Shown here piece by piece: positions 3,614 through 29,450 of a DNA stretch of 29,450 bases; position 1 is the stretch's first letter, and each line of letters opens with the position of its first letter. The position numbers were made by a program, and so were the translations under genes. Source of the stretch: a virus; UHGV virus genome UHGV-0338605. One strand, given 5' to 3'. A model generated the notes under the pieces. That model saw only the letters and a list, made by a program, of their open reading frames with translations, did no database searches and was not told the DNA's origin.

Positions 3614-3690
3614 TGGTGCGGCATGCAGGATTCGAACCTGCGACCAACCGCTTAGAAGGCGGTTGCTCTATCCAACTGAGCTAATGCCAC
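3614..3690 (-). tRNA. tRNA-Arg (anticodon UCU), argU-like
   Basis: Minus-strand 77-nt sequence GTGGCATTAGCTCAGTTGGATAGAGCAACCGCCTTCTAAGCGGTTGGTCGCAGGTTCGAATCCTGCATGCCGCACCA folds as a cloverleaf: 7-bp acceptor stem with one G-U pair, GTTCGAATC T-loop, anticodon loop CTTCTAA, encoded CCA. Confidence 0.88.
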
Positions 3691-4143: not shown

Positions 4144-4160
4144 ATTACCTAAAAGGTAAT
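4144..4160. promoter_or_regulatory. 17-bp palindrome ATTACC-TAAAA-GGTAAT, candidate operator, copy 2 of 6
   Basis: Read directly; about 90 bp upstream of the ATG at 4250 in an AT-rich promoter-like stretch. Confidence 0.6.
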
Positions 4161-21773: not shown

Positions 21774-21790
21774 TTTACCATTAGGGTAAA
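21774..21790. promoter_or_regulatory. 17-bp palindrome TTTACC-ATTAG-GGTAAA, candidate operator, copy 3 of 6
   Basis: Read directly; 40 bp upstream of the minus-strand ATG at 21734. Confidence 0.6.
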
Positions 21791-21927
21791 TGAACTATCC
21801 GAATGTTAAACGCCTTCGTACTCGTCAAATTTTCTCATGTGGGCTCCTCCTGTATCGGTGCCTAATCGCTATGGATCACCCGTAAGGTAATAGTACGCTA
21901 TTCACCCACAGTCTGCAATCTGTACAG

Positions 21928-21962: not shown

Positions 21963-22658
21963 TCAGAAGAATCCTGCTTTGTCGTTGATGTACTCCGCGT
22001 GAGTCTGGATATCACGCAGGCATTTGCTCACACCAACGATGTAGCAGAACATGGTGGTCAGTTCCGCCGCCGCGCCCGATACGTCATGCCCGTCTTCCTG
22101 TAACTGGTTCAGCAGATTCATCAGCAGTGAGTTCTCCGTCAGGCCGAGAACACCAGACGGCGAATGAATCAGGCTACGGTAGCCGGGCTTCAGTGGGGCG
22201 CTGTAGGTTTTGTTCTCTATCTTCATTGCCTGCATCACTGCTGATGCTGTGGCGTTTGCAACCTGGTCGGCAACCATCTTTATGCGTTCTTCCTGCGGGA
22301 GCGAGTTTTTAATGTAACTTCCGGTGCGGCGGATCTGAGGAAGAACCTCACCTGTAACCCATTTACGAAAGCGGTAGGGGATAGTGCCTGGTGTCACTGC
22401 GTCGCGGCAGCGGAGGATCAGTGTGTAGAGGCCTGACTCGGAGATGATGATCGATTCTTGCTCACCGCCAGGGGTGTCGGTTGAAGCGACGCCCTTCTCA
22501 TCATCATCAAGTTTTCGAACAGCATCTCGATGGTTTGCTATGCCTATAGCCCGACAAACATCTGAAGCGATAAACCATGGCTCACCATTAATGACGATTA
22601 CTCGTATATCGGCTTGGGATTCGAAAGAAAAAATGGACGTGCTTTTTGTAGCTGTCAT
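21963..22658 (-). CDS. Bro-N domain protein (antirepressor-like) with distinct C-terminal domain (231 aa)
   Basis: N-terminal FESQADIRVIVINGEPWFIASDVCRAIGIANHRDAVRKL matches the Bro-N/antirepressor N-terminal pattern; ATG at 22658 with AAGG upstream; C-terminal about 70 aa is paralogous to the small ORF at 23806-24066. Confidence 0.75.
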   Translation of the reverse strand: MTATKSTSIFSFESQADIRVIVINGEPWFIASDVCRAIGIANHRDAVRKLDDDEKGVASTDTPGGEQESIIISESGLYTLILRCRDAVTPGTIPYRFRKWVTGEVLPQIRRTGSYIKNSLPQEERIKMVADQVANATASAVMQAMKIENKTYSAPLKPGYRSLIHSPSGVLGLTENSLLMNLLNQLQEDGHDVSGAAAELTTMFCYIVGVSKCLRDIQTHAEYINDKAGFF

Positions 22659-22926
22659 AGTGGTTACCTTTTAGTCTGGTCAATCACCACTACCGACGCC
22701 AATCGGTTGGTGGTGAACTGTGCAGGGTTGGCGTAACCGGCTAAAAGGACCCGGCGCACCTTTCGGTGCCCCCACACAGCCCACCATAATACGAATGTGG
22801 CCGTGCTATACGCATAAAAAAACCGCTTGCGCGGTGAATGCGCCTTTTAGTAATCCGGGACGCCAATCCCGGCACTGGATTTTGCCAGTGCCCGATTACT
22901 ATGGCACAAGAGGAGTGCGATGTAAA

Positions 22927-22943
22927 TTTACCGAAAAGGTAAT
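22927..22943. promoter_or_regulatory. 17-bp palindrome TTTACC-GAAAA-GGTAAT, candidate operator, copy 4 of 6
   Basis: Read directly, in the divergent intergenic region 22659-23055. Confidence 0.6.
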
Positions 22944-23019
22944 GATAAACGCGGAGAAATATTAAAATCAACCGTATTTGGTTGATTGCGTTTAACGCTT
23001 GATCACCTGAAAGCAAGAT

Positions 23020-23036
23020 ATTACCTTTAAGGTAAT
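23020..23036. promoter_or_regulatory. 17-bp palindrome ATTACC-TTTAA-GGTAAT, candidate operator, copy 5 of 6
   Basis: Read directly; 20 bp upstream of the ATG at 23056. Confidence 0.6.
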
Positions 23037-23055
23037 GTTATTGTGAGGAAAAGCA

Positions 23056-23784
23056 ATGGAAGTTTTCTGGATAGTTGTTGGTGTTGTTACGGTGATTATT
23101 TACGTTATCAACCAGAACAGGACTAAGGTCTCTGATCGCACAGTCGTTAATCATCGCAAAACGATAAAGACCGAAGATGGAGAAATAACGATTAATCGTA
23201 CACAGGTGATAGACCACACCTCCACTCAGTTTCAAAAAACTGGAGGTAATGCGCCGGATATTTCAGTACATCCTGCTTATGATATATCGGTAATCCAGAC
23301 ATATTATAAACAACAGGAGTCAGCAAAAGAGAGGGCGCTGATTCAGCCAAAGCCATTTACAGCAGAGCTTCCACCTGGAGTGTCAACGCGTCCGGCATAT
23401 CATGACAGATTCCCAGGTGATGACATATCGTCTCAGTTACCTAAAAAAGCTCCTCAGGTAGTATCTGAGCCAGCAAGAATACCTTCTGTATCGCCATCAC
23501 AAGAAGAATCAGCTAACAGAGTTTCAAGTGGTAGTAAGCAGTGTTTGCGATGCAGAATAAACCTTCCATATGAAAAATTCAGGAAATCGTCAAAAAATCC
23601 AGATGGATTGACTAAGTGGTGTGCAAGGTGTCTCGATGGCCCAAAGAATACACGCCATATGAAGTGGTGCCCAATTTGTAATGTCCGCAGAAAACGCACC
23701 AGCTTTTACTCTAATAATCAAAATGCGGACGGCTTAATGGCATGGTGCAAAACGTGCTGGGACGAGCACAAAGCGAAACGATAG
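23056..23784 (+). CDS. membrane-anchored protein with tandem Cys4 zinc-ribbon-like repeats (242 aa)
   Basis: GAGGAA RBS; N-terminal hydrophobic helix FWIVVGVVTVIIYVI; C-terminus carries two repeats of C-x2-C-x(17-20)-DGL-x3-WC-x2-C; AT-rich; followed by a strong terminator. Confidence 0.65.
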   Translation: MEVFWIVVGVVTVIIYVINQNRTKVSDRTVVNHRKTIKTEDGEITINRTQVIDHTSTQFQKTGGNAPDISVHPAYDISVIQTYYKQQESAKERALIQPKPFTAELPPGVSTRPAYHDRFPGDDISSQLPKKAPQVVSEPARIPSVSPSQEESANRVSSGSKQCLRCRINLPYEKFRKSSKNPDGLTKWCARCLDGPKNTRHMKWCPICNVRRKRTSFYSNNQNADGLMAWCKTCWDEHKAKR

Positions 23785-23808
23785 GCCGCTCTTGCGGCCT
23801 TTTTTTTA
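23784..23808 (+). terminator. rho-independent terminator
   Basis: Stem GGCCGC/GCGGCC (23784-23799) with TCTT loop followed by T8 (23800-23807). Confidence 0.75.
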
Positions 23809-24066
23809 TGTGGTTTGTTTTCGTAATTGTTCGGCACAATAGTCGAGATGTGTTTGCAGATCCTTCATGGATAGCTGTGAGCTGGTGACATAGTTCACCA
23901 GTGCAGTAAGTTCGGCCAGCGGCCCGTCGACGTTGAACCCGTCTTTATCAAGTTCCCGCAATAAAGTCATAAGGTGCGAGTTCTCCACCAGGGATATAAC
24001 GCCTCCCGGCGTGTGTACTCTTTCATAAAATCCATCTTCCAGTGGGTGGTGATACCGCTGTTGCAT
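23806..24066 (-). CDS. small protein (86 aa) paralogous to the C-terminal domain of the Bro-N protein
   Basis: ATG at 24066 preceded by GGAG (the track ORF begins at a TTG at 24084). About 40-45% identity by eye to residues about 160-225 of the 231-aa Bro-N protein (shared ENS-LM-LL, DG-V-G, AELT, QTH-Y). Confidence 0.6.
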   Translation of the reverse strand: MQQRYHHPLEDGFYERVHTPGGVISLVENSHLMTLLRELDKDGFNVDGPLAELTALVNYVTSSQLSMKDLQTHLDYCAEQLRKQTT

Positions 24067-24141
24067 TAACCATTCTCCATACAAACACTGTATATATATA
24101 CATATATCAGATGAACCACTGTTTCACCAGTATGATTTTTA

Positions 24142-24158
24142 ATTACCTGTGAGGTAAT
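24142..24158. promoter_or_regulatory. 17-bp palindrome ATTACC-TGTGA-GGTAAT, candidate operator, copy 6 of 6
   Basis: Read directly; between the divergent starts of the 86-aa gene (24066, minus) and the tail spike gene (24262, plus). Confidence 0.6.
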
Positions 24159-28941: not shown

Positions 28942-29450
28942 CTGTCTCTTGATCAGATCTCCTGATCAAGAGACTTCATCACCAGGTAACCCTCAACCAT
29001 ATCCTGAAGTCTGAACCAGCCATCCCACATGACTACCCAACCGGGGCGACCGGTGCGTTTGCTGTCATGCCATCGCCCCAGTTTCGCCAGTTTCAGACAG
29101 GCCCATTTCAGTGTCGGCATCTGTGACGGAAGCGGTTTTCCTTCCAGCTTAACCCACAGCAGTTTCCACTCTGTCGGCGTCAGTATTTTCTCACAGCTGT
29201 CATTTTGTGTTTCTTCACTGATACCGCCCTGCCGCAGGCCCAGCACCCGCACCGCGATAAACGCCTTGATAACCACCATGCGCTCGAGGTTATCCCGGGT
29301 CTGCATTCGCAGCGATTCCACACATGTACCACCACTTTTCCACGCCTTGTGGTATTCCTCTATCAGCCAGCGTCGCTCGTAATGGCTGACGATACGTCGC
29401 GCATCGGCGGCACTCGCCACTTTTTCTGACGTCAGCAGATGCCAGCAGGC
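28942..29450. mobile_element. IS50-like (IS4 family) insertion sequence, one end only; runs off the window
   Basis: 28942-28960 CTGTCTCTTGATCAGATCT matches, from memory, the 19-bp inside end of IS50; the adjacent minus-strand ORF is a Tn5-transposase-like C-terminus. Confidence 0.75.
28953..29450 (-). CDS. IS4-family (Tn5/IS50-like) transposase, C-terminal part; 5' end beyond window
   Basis: Translation contains IEEYHKAWKSGG, DNLERMV, ILTPTEW, DSKRTG, W.GW, matching the conserved C-terminal blocks of Tn5 transposase as recalled; stop TGA lies inside the terminal repeat. Confidence 0.75.
   Translation of the reverse strand, partial: ACWHLLTSEKVASAADARRIVSHYERRWLIEEYHKAWKSGGTCVESLRMQTRDNLERMVVIKAFIAVRVLGLRQGGISEETQNDSCEKILTPTEWKLLWVKLEGKPLPSQMPTLKWACLKLAKLGRWHDSKRTGRPGWVVMWDGWFRLQDMVEGYLVMKSLDQEI

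Follow-up and report, generated by a model that had tools for sequence, protein, structure and literature searches.

The spacer ahead of the Bro-N gene of this phage raises a simple question: what does a GC-rich, hairpin-dense block contribute to the gene that follows it? The window (the whole stretch of DNA analysed here, 29,450 nt) is an integrated prophage resembling TL-2011b, to which it is 98% identical over the block. The gene itself (21963-22658, minus strand) codes for a Bro-N domain protein of 231 amino acids and putative anti-repressor (Ant), which matches Pfam Bro-N with 76.7 bits and PHROG 130, “anti-repressor Ant,” with E = 3.7e-63. These matches suggest that the protein acts as an anti-repressor, and TL-2011b annotates the gene as a putative one. 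In RefSeq, a protein of the same 231-aa length is annotated as a BRO-N protein, and the spacer is left without any marked feature.

A sequence-only reading of the window had described the block at 22680-22920 as much richer in GC than its surroundings and had offered three options for it: a structured 5' leader of the Bro-N mRNA, a small RNA, or a recombination or replication element. The difference in composition is there, with 55.6% GC in the block compared to 33.3% in the rest of the intergenic region (22921-23055) and 49.4% in the window as a whole. The Bro-N gene itself has 52% GC, so the contrast is mainly with the AT-rich promoter half of the spacer. The block also folds stably on both strands. 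The minus-strand RNA from 22891 to 22640 reaches -105.1 kcal/mol compared to -81.6 ± 5.2 kcal/mol for dinucleotide shuffles (z = -4.5, with none of 200 shuffles as stable), and the plus-strand RNA is nearly equal (z = -4.25) because it contains the same inverted repeats. The block is real and non-random.

No protein seems to be encoded here. The plus-strand open reading frame (ORF) at 22720-22965 (81 aa), which had been taken for non-coding translation, has no Pfam match, and indels of 1 nt and 6 nt in the relatives break every frame. A 91-aa ORF on the minus strand and an ORF resembling orf45 of phage Gifsy-1 were considered as genes and rejected, since neither has a Pfam match or a conserved frame. 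The ATG ORF at 22787-22680 (35 aa) stops 22 nt before the Bro-N ATG. Among 63 sequences there is no conserved reading frame, the length of the open stretch, the stops, and the start codons all being variable, and four relatives do not have any ORF of at least 25 codons that ends near the Bro-N ATG. The conserved small protein that would have spoken against a structured RNA is therefore not found among the relatives.

Two RNA families in the Bro-N leader

When all Rfam models are run against the window, two families exceed their gathering scores within the block, both on the minus strand and both over the full length of the model. The isrK family of Hfq-binding RNAs (RF01394) matches 22891-22816 with 77.9 bits (gathering score 50; model positions 1-77), and the C4 antisense RNA (RF01695) matches 22791-22706 with 77.7 bits (gathering score 45; model positions 1-87). 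A third family, c4-a1b1 (RF03163, “a1,b1 targets of C4”), reaches 45.1 bits at 22904-22852, which is just below its gathering score of 46.7. By these matches, the leader of the anti-repressor gene carries a well-known phage immunity module, with an IsrK-like small RNA first and C4 second. Two of the three earlier options hold side by side: the block is the predicted transcribed leader of Bro-N, and it contains small RNAs as two units, one IsrK-like and one C4.

Other candidates were set aside. Weak Rfam matches at E values up to 10 (lysM-TM7, IMES-4, FtrA, CRISPR-DR57, and snoRNAs) are far below their gathering scores. The same is true of all plus-strand matches at E up to 10, and the G-U pairs described in the next section also favour the minus strand over a plus-strand RNA. 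According to ARAGORN, the block has neither a tRNA nor a tmRNA, and the one tRNA of the window is tRNA-Arg at 3614-3690.

The features of the leader can be followed along the minus strand in the direction of the predicted transcription. A promoter scan places a sigma-70 promoter at 22898-22926, with the -35 box TTTACA (22926-22921), a 17-nt spacer, and the extended -10 box TGcCATAGT (22906-22898). Position 1 of the isrK model comes 7 nt after the end of the -10 box, which predicts G22891 as the start of transcription. A promoter of the form TTGAC-N17-TATAnT is found at the same distance in P1, APSE-7, the Stx phages, and Gifsy-1. Abutting the -35 box of the leader is a palindrome, TTACC-N5-GGTAA (22928-22942), which is kept in 75 of 78 related loci. 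The motif occurs eight times in the window, compared to 0.41 expected, and every copy is within a spacer upstream of a gene. By analogy to the Oc4 and Op51 operators of P1, the palindrome is a candidate operator for a DNA-binding protein. The few left-end ORFs that were scanned include no evident gene of the HTH type. A second promoter-like site (TTGATT at 22971-22966 and TATCAT at 22947-22942) has the palindrome just downstream of it.

The first unit is an IsrK-like short transcript (22816-22891), equivalent to the a1/b1 segment of P1. The names of the sites follow from the homology to P1, in which the a sites are complementary to a junction of C4 and the b sites to a loop. The unit begins with hairpin 1 (22891-22872, the CACTGG/CCAGTG repeat) and hairpin 2 (22871-22856, CCGGGA/TCCCGG). 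Site a1 (UUGGCGU, 22860-22866) is located in and beside the loop of hairpin 2 and is an exact 7-nt complement of the C4 segment a', while site b1 (CUAAAAGG, 22843-22850) is an exact 8-nt complement of the C4 segment b'. An intrinsic terminator follows, identified by a terminator scan, with its stem at 22835-22822 and a U7 run at 22821-22815. The promoter-like and the terminator-like sites stand where the isrK family expects them, and both are conserved in the relatives. Another helix, GCGCAU/AUGCGU (22843-22838 with 22814-22809), brackets the terminator and its U-run and is present in the MFE fold; together they make up the nested repeat of ACCGC/GCGGT within CGCAT/ATGCG. Since the bracketing helix spans the terminator and the U-run, it can form only in a read-through transcript.

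A spacer of 24 nt separates the IsrK part from the C4 antisense RNA gene (22706-22791). C4 comprises a closing stem (22786-22770 with 22727-22711), hairpin I (22769-22756, GCACC-TTTC-GGTGC), and hairpin II (22755-22736). Segment b' (CCUUUUAG, 22741-22748) lies in the loop of hairpin II, and segment a' (ACGCCAA, 22728-22734) is the single-stranded junction that joins hairpin II to the closing stem. When the ends of the annotated P1 C4 are transferred via the model alignment, the mature C4 is predicted to extend from 22785 to 22709. The invariant AUGGUGGG at the position of the P1 cleavage and the ...CACCACC 3' end point to the same 77-nt RNA, and this 77-mer alone folds to the family structure with -45.1 kcal/mol.

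Beyond C4, the a2 hairpin (22685-22715, the repeat CACCAC..CCGA/TCGG..GTGGTG) presents site a2 (UUGGCGU, 22702-22696), an exact 7-nt complement of a', in its loop. Five bases of the 3' strand of the C4 closing stem are shared by the outer stem of this hairpin (CACCAC/GUGGUG), which means that the two structures are mutually exclusive. This overlap, along with the helix that brackets the terminator, may organise processing or switching. The last element is site b2 (CUAAAAGG, 22667-22674), which is again an exact 8-nt complement of b'. It contains the SD sequence AAGG (22670-22667), positioned 8 nt 5' of the Bro-N ATG (22658). On the minus strand of the 29-kb window, an a site followed by a b site within 45 nt is found in only these two places, both of them in the leader.

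All five hairpins listed in the sequence-only reading are present in the sequence and can be assigned to parts of the module as given above. The list did not include the dominant element, which is the 17-bp closing stem of C4, nor did it include hairpin II. The antisense logic was absent as well, that is, the two C4 segments that are complementary to two pairs of target sites, one of which is over the Bro-N RBS.

Coevolution of the helices and the pairing sites

Relatives were collected by a search of IMG/VR with the Bro-N protein, which gave 79 loci at 75-100% protein identity. The upstream sequences of these loci fall into 62 distinct versions, or 35 over the leader alone, at 74-99% nucleotide identity, and nine distant phages were considered in addition. 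The covariation statistics refer to an alignment of 45 sequences of distinct relatives. Across this alignment, the named structure is 96% paired, 29 of its 58 pairs are changed on both sides, and none of 500 shuffles reaches the observed covariation. When the partners are slid by one to three columns, pairing falls to 36-47%. The helices, in other words, are kept through compensatory changes in the loci of the relatives, which is the covariation that the sequence-only reading had named as a check.

The same holds for the individual parts. The closing stem of C4 is 99.7% paired, with five doubly changed pairs, and its two hairpins are 95% and 89% paired; in hairpin I, all five pairs are changed on both sides. 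The a2 hairpin is 96.8% paired (5 of 10 pairs changed on both sides), and the helices of the IsrK part are 82-98% paired, again with compensatory changes. The helix that brackets the terminator has compensatory variants as well, including GCACAU/AUGUGU, GCGACAA/UUGUCGU, and, in P1, GGACA/UGUCC. As for the pairings between sites, a1 and a' are paired in 100% of the cells, with four of six pairs changed on both sides, and b1 and b' are 95% paired, with six of eight. Site a2 is 98.9% paired with a', and b2 is 82% paired with b' on an alignment that is partly out of register.

The three-way complementarity is maintained even as the sequences themselves change. Five a-types were counted; in the close relatives, these include UUGGCG/CGCCAA, UUUGCA/UGCAAA, and UUGGUC/GACCAA, and in distant phages UUGACAG, UUUGAGAC, and UUGCUAC. 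The b-type differs in almost every phage group. In the close relatives, the b-types are CUAAAAGG/CCUUUUAG, CUACA(A/G)AGG/CCUUUGUAG, and CUAAGUGG/CCACUUAG, of which the CUACA(A/G)AGG type is a 1-nt insertion that is present in all three copies. In every sequence from the close relatives, the copy in C4 matches those on either side of it. Matching triplets are found in distant phages too, with UUGACAG (a) and GUUAGUG (b) in P1, UUUGAGAC and CUAACAAGG in APSE-7, and UUGCUAC and UGACUA(C/U)(U/C)G in Stx2_131990. The sole exception seen is IdasGreatGrand (L086), in which no obvious complement of b2 was found. In every relative examined apart from this phage, b2 lies across the SD of the gene that comes next.

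The alignment also bears on the idea that the block is a DNA-level element, such as a recombination site or a replication origin, or else a small protein gene. The dense inverted repeats and the two ORFs that cross the region, of 81 aa on the plus strand and 91 aa on the minus strand, would be in keeping with it. However, at two positions of the C4 stem, 39-44 of the 45 sequences have G-U, a pair that would turn into a C-A mismatch on the opposite strand or in DNA. Neither a plus-strand RNA nor a structure at the DNA level is compatible with these conserved pairs, and the strand is fixed as the minus strand. The strong matches to two RNA families are likewise strand specific, and both crossing ORFs are broken by indels in the relatives. 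We consider this explanation scarcely credible, and the recombination or replication option of the sequence-only reading is rejected.

Homologous loci in other phages

The comparison with CHARACTERISED systems covers P1, Gifsy-1, APSE-7, Stx, and other phages. The closest in layout is the immI region of P1 and P7. In the P1 record, the experiment-based features are, in order, Oc4, P2c4/P1c4, a1, b1, the 77-nt C4, a2, b2, icd, and ant1/ant2, and Rfam gives C4 (68.8 bits), c4-a1b1 (51 bits), and a sub-threshold isrK (35 bits) at the corresponding positions. The parts come in one and the same order in both loci: a promoter, a pair of hairpins of which the second has a1 in its loop, b1, a terminator-like hairpin with a U-run, a 77-nt C4 with a long closing stem and two hairpins, a2, b2 over the SD of the following gene, and an anti-repressor. 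The lengths of the sites are equal (7 nt for a and 8 nt for b), and the same C4 model is matched, with the higher score in the window.

C4 of P1 and P7 pairs with a2 and b2 at the RBS and blocks the synthesis of the anti-repressor (PMC12197685; P1 record), and the heteroimmunity of the two phages is accounted for by differences in the short a and b sequences (PMC12197685). The RNA is cut from the operon transcript, with RNase P making its 5' end, as stated in the part of PMC11143913 that cites Hartmann et al. 1995.

There are also clear differences. P1 depends on the icd ORF and on Rho-dependent polarity, both of which are absent in the window; here the SD under b2 is that of the anti-repressor gene. 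The distance from the C4 match to the Bro-N ATG is only 47 nt. Given this distance and the position of b2, the locus would work like immI without being an immI operon with icd. The anti-repressor of the window is the 231-aa Bro-N protein rather than Ant1/2, the a and b sequences differ, and the candidate operator of the window is a palindrome, unlike the asymmetric 17-bp C1 operator of P1. Finally, immI of P1 (promoters P51a/b and operator Op51) belongs to a plasmid prophage, unlike the integrated prophage of the window.

The second homolog is the isrK-orf45-anrP-isrJ locus of Gifsy-1 in Salmonella. Its isrK scores 79.3 bits, and 25 nt after it there is a C4 match of 69 bits (34214-34131) that coincides with the published “orf45” and with the processed RNA of about 80 nt called STnc1160. 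The a sequence is the same as in the window (UUGGCGU/ACGCCAA), and b2 (AUCACCGG) overlaps the GGAGG SD of the anti-repressor gene anrP about 50 nt after C4. The b sequences of the two loci differ, and no isrJ homolog follows the gene in the window. Also, the published orf45 overlaps C4 and ends at the AUG of anrP, whereas the window does not have an ORF in that form.

In Gifsy-1, some transcripts stop at the IsrK terminator and others read through it, and the latter are the source of the processed RNA of about 80 nt (Hershko-Shalev et al. 2016, PMC4825925). The longer mRNA is silent in translation, and IsrK supplied in trans raises the translation of anrP 140-fold (PMC4825925). By the Rfam match, the region with which IsrK pairs in trans is C4. 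The IsrK paper itself likens the locus to P4 CI and not to P1 C4 (PMC4825925).

The APSE phages of Hamiltonella have the same arrangement as the window, with isrK, C4, and a BRO-N gene directly after C4 (LR794147; PMC7313666), in another phage family and with the a and b types of APSE-7 given above. The authors drew no link between isrK and the a1/b1 sites (PMC7313666). The tandem of isrK and C4 is above threshold in APSE-7, in three types of Stx phages, and in Ayreon, PhiR49_2, IdasGreatGrand, and HEMP4. The next gene in these phages encodes Ant, a Bro-N protein, or an unnamed protein. Similar leaders are also widespread among complete E. coli genomes, being present in 2487 of 5426, with up to six per genome.

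A more remote likeness is that to the CI RNA of P4, with its sites seqA and seqC. Like the proposed C4 of the window, it is a processed small RNA from a leader that pairs with repeated upstream and downstream sites and keeps lytic or anti-immunity genes off. It differs in that it acts by premature termination of transcription and controls replication genes. The CA RNA of N15 is of the same kind, being likewise processed from the leader of its operon and pairing with repeated sites.

Control of the anti-repressor

Very probably, then, the module is a homolog of P1/P7 immI and of the Gifsy-1 isrK locus that serves an anti-repressor operon of the prophage as its RNA-based control region, with C4 as the lock and IsrK as the source of decoys. 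The most likely mode of action is that processed C4 blocks the translation of Bro-N and that the IsrK transcript with its decoy sites can counteract it. Transcription would begin at about 22891 on the minus strand, with a DNA-binding protein at the palindrome next to the promoter setting its level. Many transcripts would end at the terminator (22835-22815) and yield a 76-nt IsrK-like RNA that carries a1 and b1. Those that read through would carry C4, which, by homology to P1, would be excised as the 77-nt RNA, its 5' end being cut by RNase P. The loop segment b' and the junction segment a' of C4 would then pair with b2 over the Bro-N SD and with a2 in the loop of its hairpin. Since b2 covers the SD, translation of the anti-repressor would fail, and repression would be kept up, whether of the prophage or of a superinfecting phage with the same a/b type. 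The a1 and b1 copies, either in the leader or on the free IsrK RNA, would compete for the C4 segments and relieve the block, as is the case for IsrK in Gifsy-1.

Some points speak against this scheme, among them the missing b2 complement of IdasGreatGrand and the absence of the icd and orf45 relays. RNAcofold of C4 with either target gives no intermolecular pairing and no net gain (-62.0 compared to -62.0 kcal/mol), a result we regard as uninformative because loop-loop contacts lie outside its model. The energies of simple duplexes beat just 97-98% of shuffles, and the pairings are short at 7 and 8 bp.

One alternative is that the locus works only by activation of the Gifsy-1 type. The sites a1 and b1 would pair with a' and b' in cis to give an inactive leader, free IsrK would open it in trans, a small upstream ORF would be coupled to the anti-repressor, and C4 would not be a repressor in trans. 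This has been demonstrated genetically at the homologous locus of Gifsy-1 (PMC4825925). In the window, the MFE structure of the full leader indeed has a1/b1 paired in cis with a'/b', and ATG 22787 opens the 35-aa ORF at the position of the first orf45 AUG. However, that ORF ends well short of the Bro-N ATG, its frame, length, and start codon vary, and 1-nt indels in b1 and b' are met by compensation at the level of the RNA, not by conservation of a frame. Even the amino acid sequence of orf45 is not conserved, according to PMC4825925 itself. Nor does a cis-only model need a2 and b2 to covary with a' and b', or b2 to be over the Bro-N SD. Activation alone is improbable as the account of this locus. 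At the same time, constitutive expression of the C4-equivalent RNA (STnc1160) in Gifsy-1 enhanced the toxicity of IsrK and did not counteract it (PMC4825925), which a simple scheme of repression by C4 and titration by IsrK does not predict.

Another alternative moves the control from translation to termination, as in P4 CI. C4 would act on the nascent a1 and b1, and possibly again on a2 and b2, to modulate termination, and read-through would be the main level of control. In support, b1 ends where the conserved bracketing helix starts (22843), so pairing at b1 could change the folding of the terminator. The P4 CI RNA works by termination, and the idea was raised by the authors of the IsrK study (PMC4825925); in P1, C4 ultimately lowers the transcription of ant. 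Yet the position of b2 over the SD in nearly all relatives argues for translational control as the conserved step, the terminator scan has no terminator-like site after a2/b2, and for IsrK in Gifsy-1 the change in transcription is 8-fold compared to 140-fold in translation. As the main level of control, termination is rather improbable here, and it may be an additional layer to translational repression by C4.

The element, though functional and well conserved, is already known. Both families are in Rfam, homologs have been dissected in P1/P7 and Gifsy-1, and isrK, C4, and Bro-N are annotated in APSE, so specialists in phage immunity RNAs will find nothing surprising here. The local variations are minor, namely, a Bro-N-type Ant that would be the direct target of C4, no ORF lying between them, the palindromic candidate operator, and the several a/b types among near-identical prophages. 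What may be under-appreciated is the equation of IsrK with the a1/b1 segment and of orf45/STnc1160 with C4, though it is direct from the Rfam matches; in the literature searched, IsrK and C4 are handled as separate RNAs (PMC12197685 and PMC7313666).

A wider reading can be put forward tentatively, and we consider it somewhat more doubtful than probable. IsrK and C4 would together form one RNA toggle that gates the translation of the anti-repressor in many enterobacterial prophages, with IsrK as the a1/b1 decoy (an anti-antisense RNA), orf45/STnc1160 as C4, and the a and b sequences as a two-part address for cross-repression. In the window, the toggle would act directly on Bro-N, with no relay through icd or orf45. 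If true, the a/b address would decide which co-resident prophages cross-repress and which ignore each other.

For annotation, the spacer of about 400 bp before the Bro-N/Ant genes of TL-2011b-like prophages, which is treated as “empty,” holds two RNA genes. For the biology of these phages, the module would be a post-transcriptional lock on the anti-repressor and hence on prophage induction and superinfection immunity. The coordinated a/b variation among near-identical prophages would then be a natural case of the switching of immunity specificity of the P1/P7 type.

Counterparts of the C4 leader in Gifsy-1 and E. coli

The isrK locus of the Gifsy-1 prophage (NC_010392) contains a full match to the Rfam C4 model, scoring 69 bits at 34131-34214 and coinciding with the element published as "orf45" or STnc1160. 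The downstream site b2 of Gifsy-1, in the region 34076-34100, is complementary to the loop of hairpin II in this C4 match and overlaps the Shine-Dalgarno sequence of anrP. The C4 RNA of P1 goes unmentioned in the IsrK paper (Hershko-Shalev et al. 2016, PMC4825925).

The leader (window 22659-22895) has homologs in 2487 of 5426 complete E. coli genomes, with up to six per genome, and 88 of the places in this collection are on plasmids. Most are either without annotation or covered by calls for "ash family" or "Rha family" proteins.

Additional helices in the leader RNA

On the minus strand, a GCGCAU/AUGCGU helix (22809-22843) surrounds the isrK terminator together with its U-run. Only transcripts that read through the terminator can therefore form it. 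The helix is missing from the Rfam isrK model, and it shows compensatory variants among relatives, including P1 and Gifsy-1. Possible roles are in processing or in anti-termination.

Further along the same strand, the sequence CACCA(C) belongs both to the outer stem of the a2 hairpin (22685-22715) and to the C4 closing stem, where it ends the 3' strand (22711-22727). Since both conserved structures use this sequence, they are mutually exclusive, which suggests that the RNA switches conformation or that one state is confined to the time before C4 is excised or after it.

Hairpin 1, the first hairpin of the leader transcript, varies in another way. In three related prophages from IMG/VR (L040, L049 and L051), its loop, corresponding to window 22878-22883, is inverted from CAAAAT to ATTTTG while the stem stays the same, as if the hairpin had been flipped at the DNA level.

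Neighboring genes and other features

The product of the divergent neighbor of the leader (23056-23784, plus strand) is a 242-aa protein that has a membrane helix at its N terminus and Cys-rich repeats at its C terminus; the repeats weakly resemble endonuclease VII or Lar-like zinc ribbons (PHROG 6762). The annotation of phage TL-2011b has no CDS for the homologous region, which carries just a misc_feature ("similar to hypothetical protein"). A 92-aa ORF (23806-24084, minus strand) is paralogous to the C-terminal domain of the Bro-N anti-repressor but stands alone, with 41% identity over 75 aa, and matches PHROG 450 (E = 1.6e-45). Its product might act together with the anti-repressor or compete with it.

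Elsewhere in the prophage, a minus-strand tRNA-Arg gene with the anticodon UCU (3614-3690) is flanked by the terminase and portal genes, which run on the opposite strand. A minus-strand ORF at 28953-29420 has borderline matches to a Tn5-type transposase dimerization domain and a DDE domain and is probably an insertion sequence fragment at the prophage end.

A dispersed set of palindromes

The palindrome TTACC-N5-GGTAA, often extended to aTTACC...GGTAAt, occurs eight times in the window compared to an expected 0.41 (813-827, 831-845, 4145-4159, 21775-21789, 21876-21890, 22928-22942, 23021-23035 and 24143-24157). All eight copies are in spacers 5' of genes. They precede the genes for the small terminase and the portal, a 211-aa ORF, the gene at 23056, and the pair formed by the tailspike gene and the 92-aa ORF, the latter having one copy upstream. 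Another copy is next to the promoter of the C4 leader and is conserved in 75 of 78 related loci. This spread-out arrangement recalls the scattered C1 operators of P1, and the set looks like candidate dispersed operators of a single prophage regulator.
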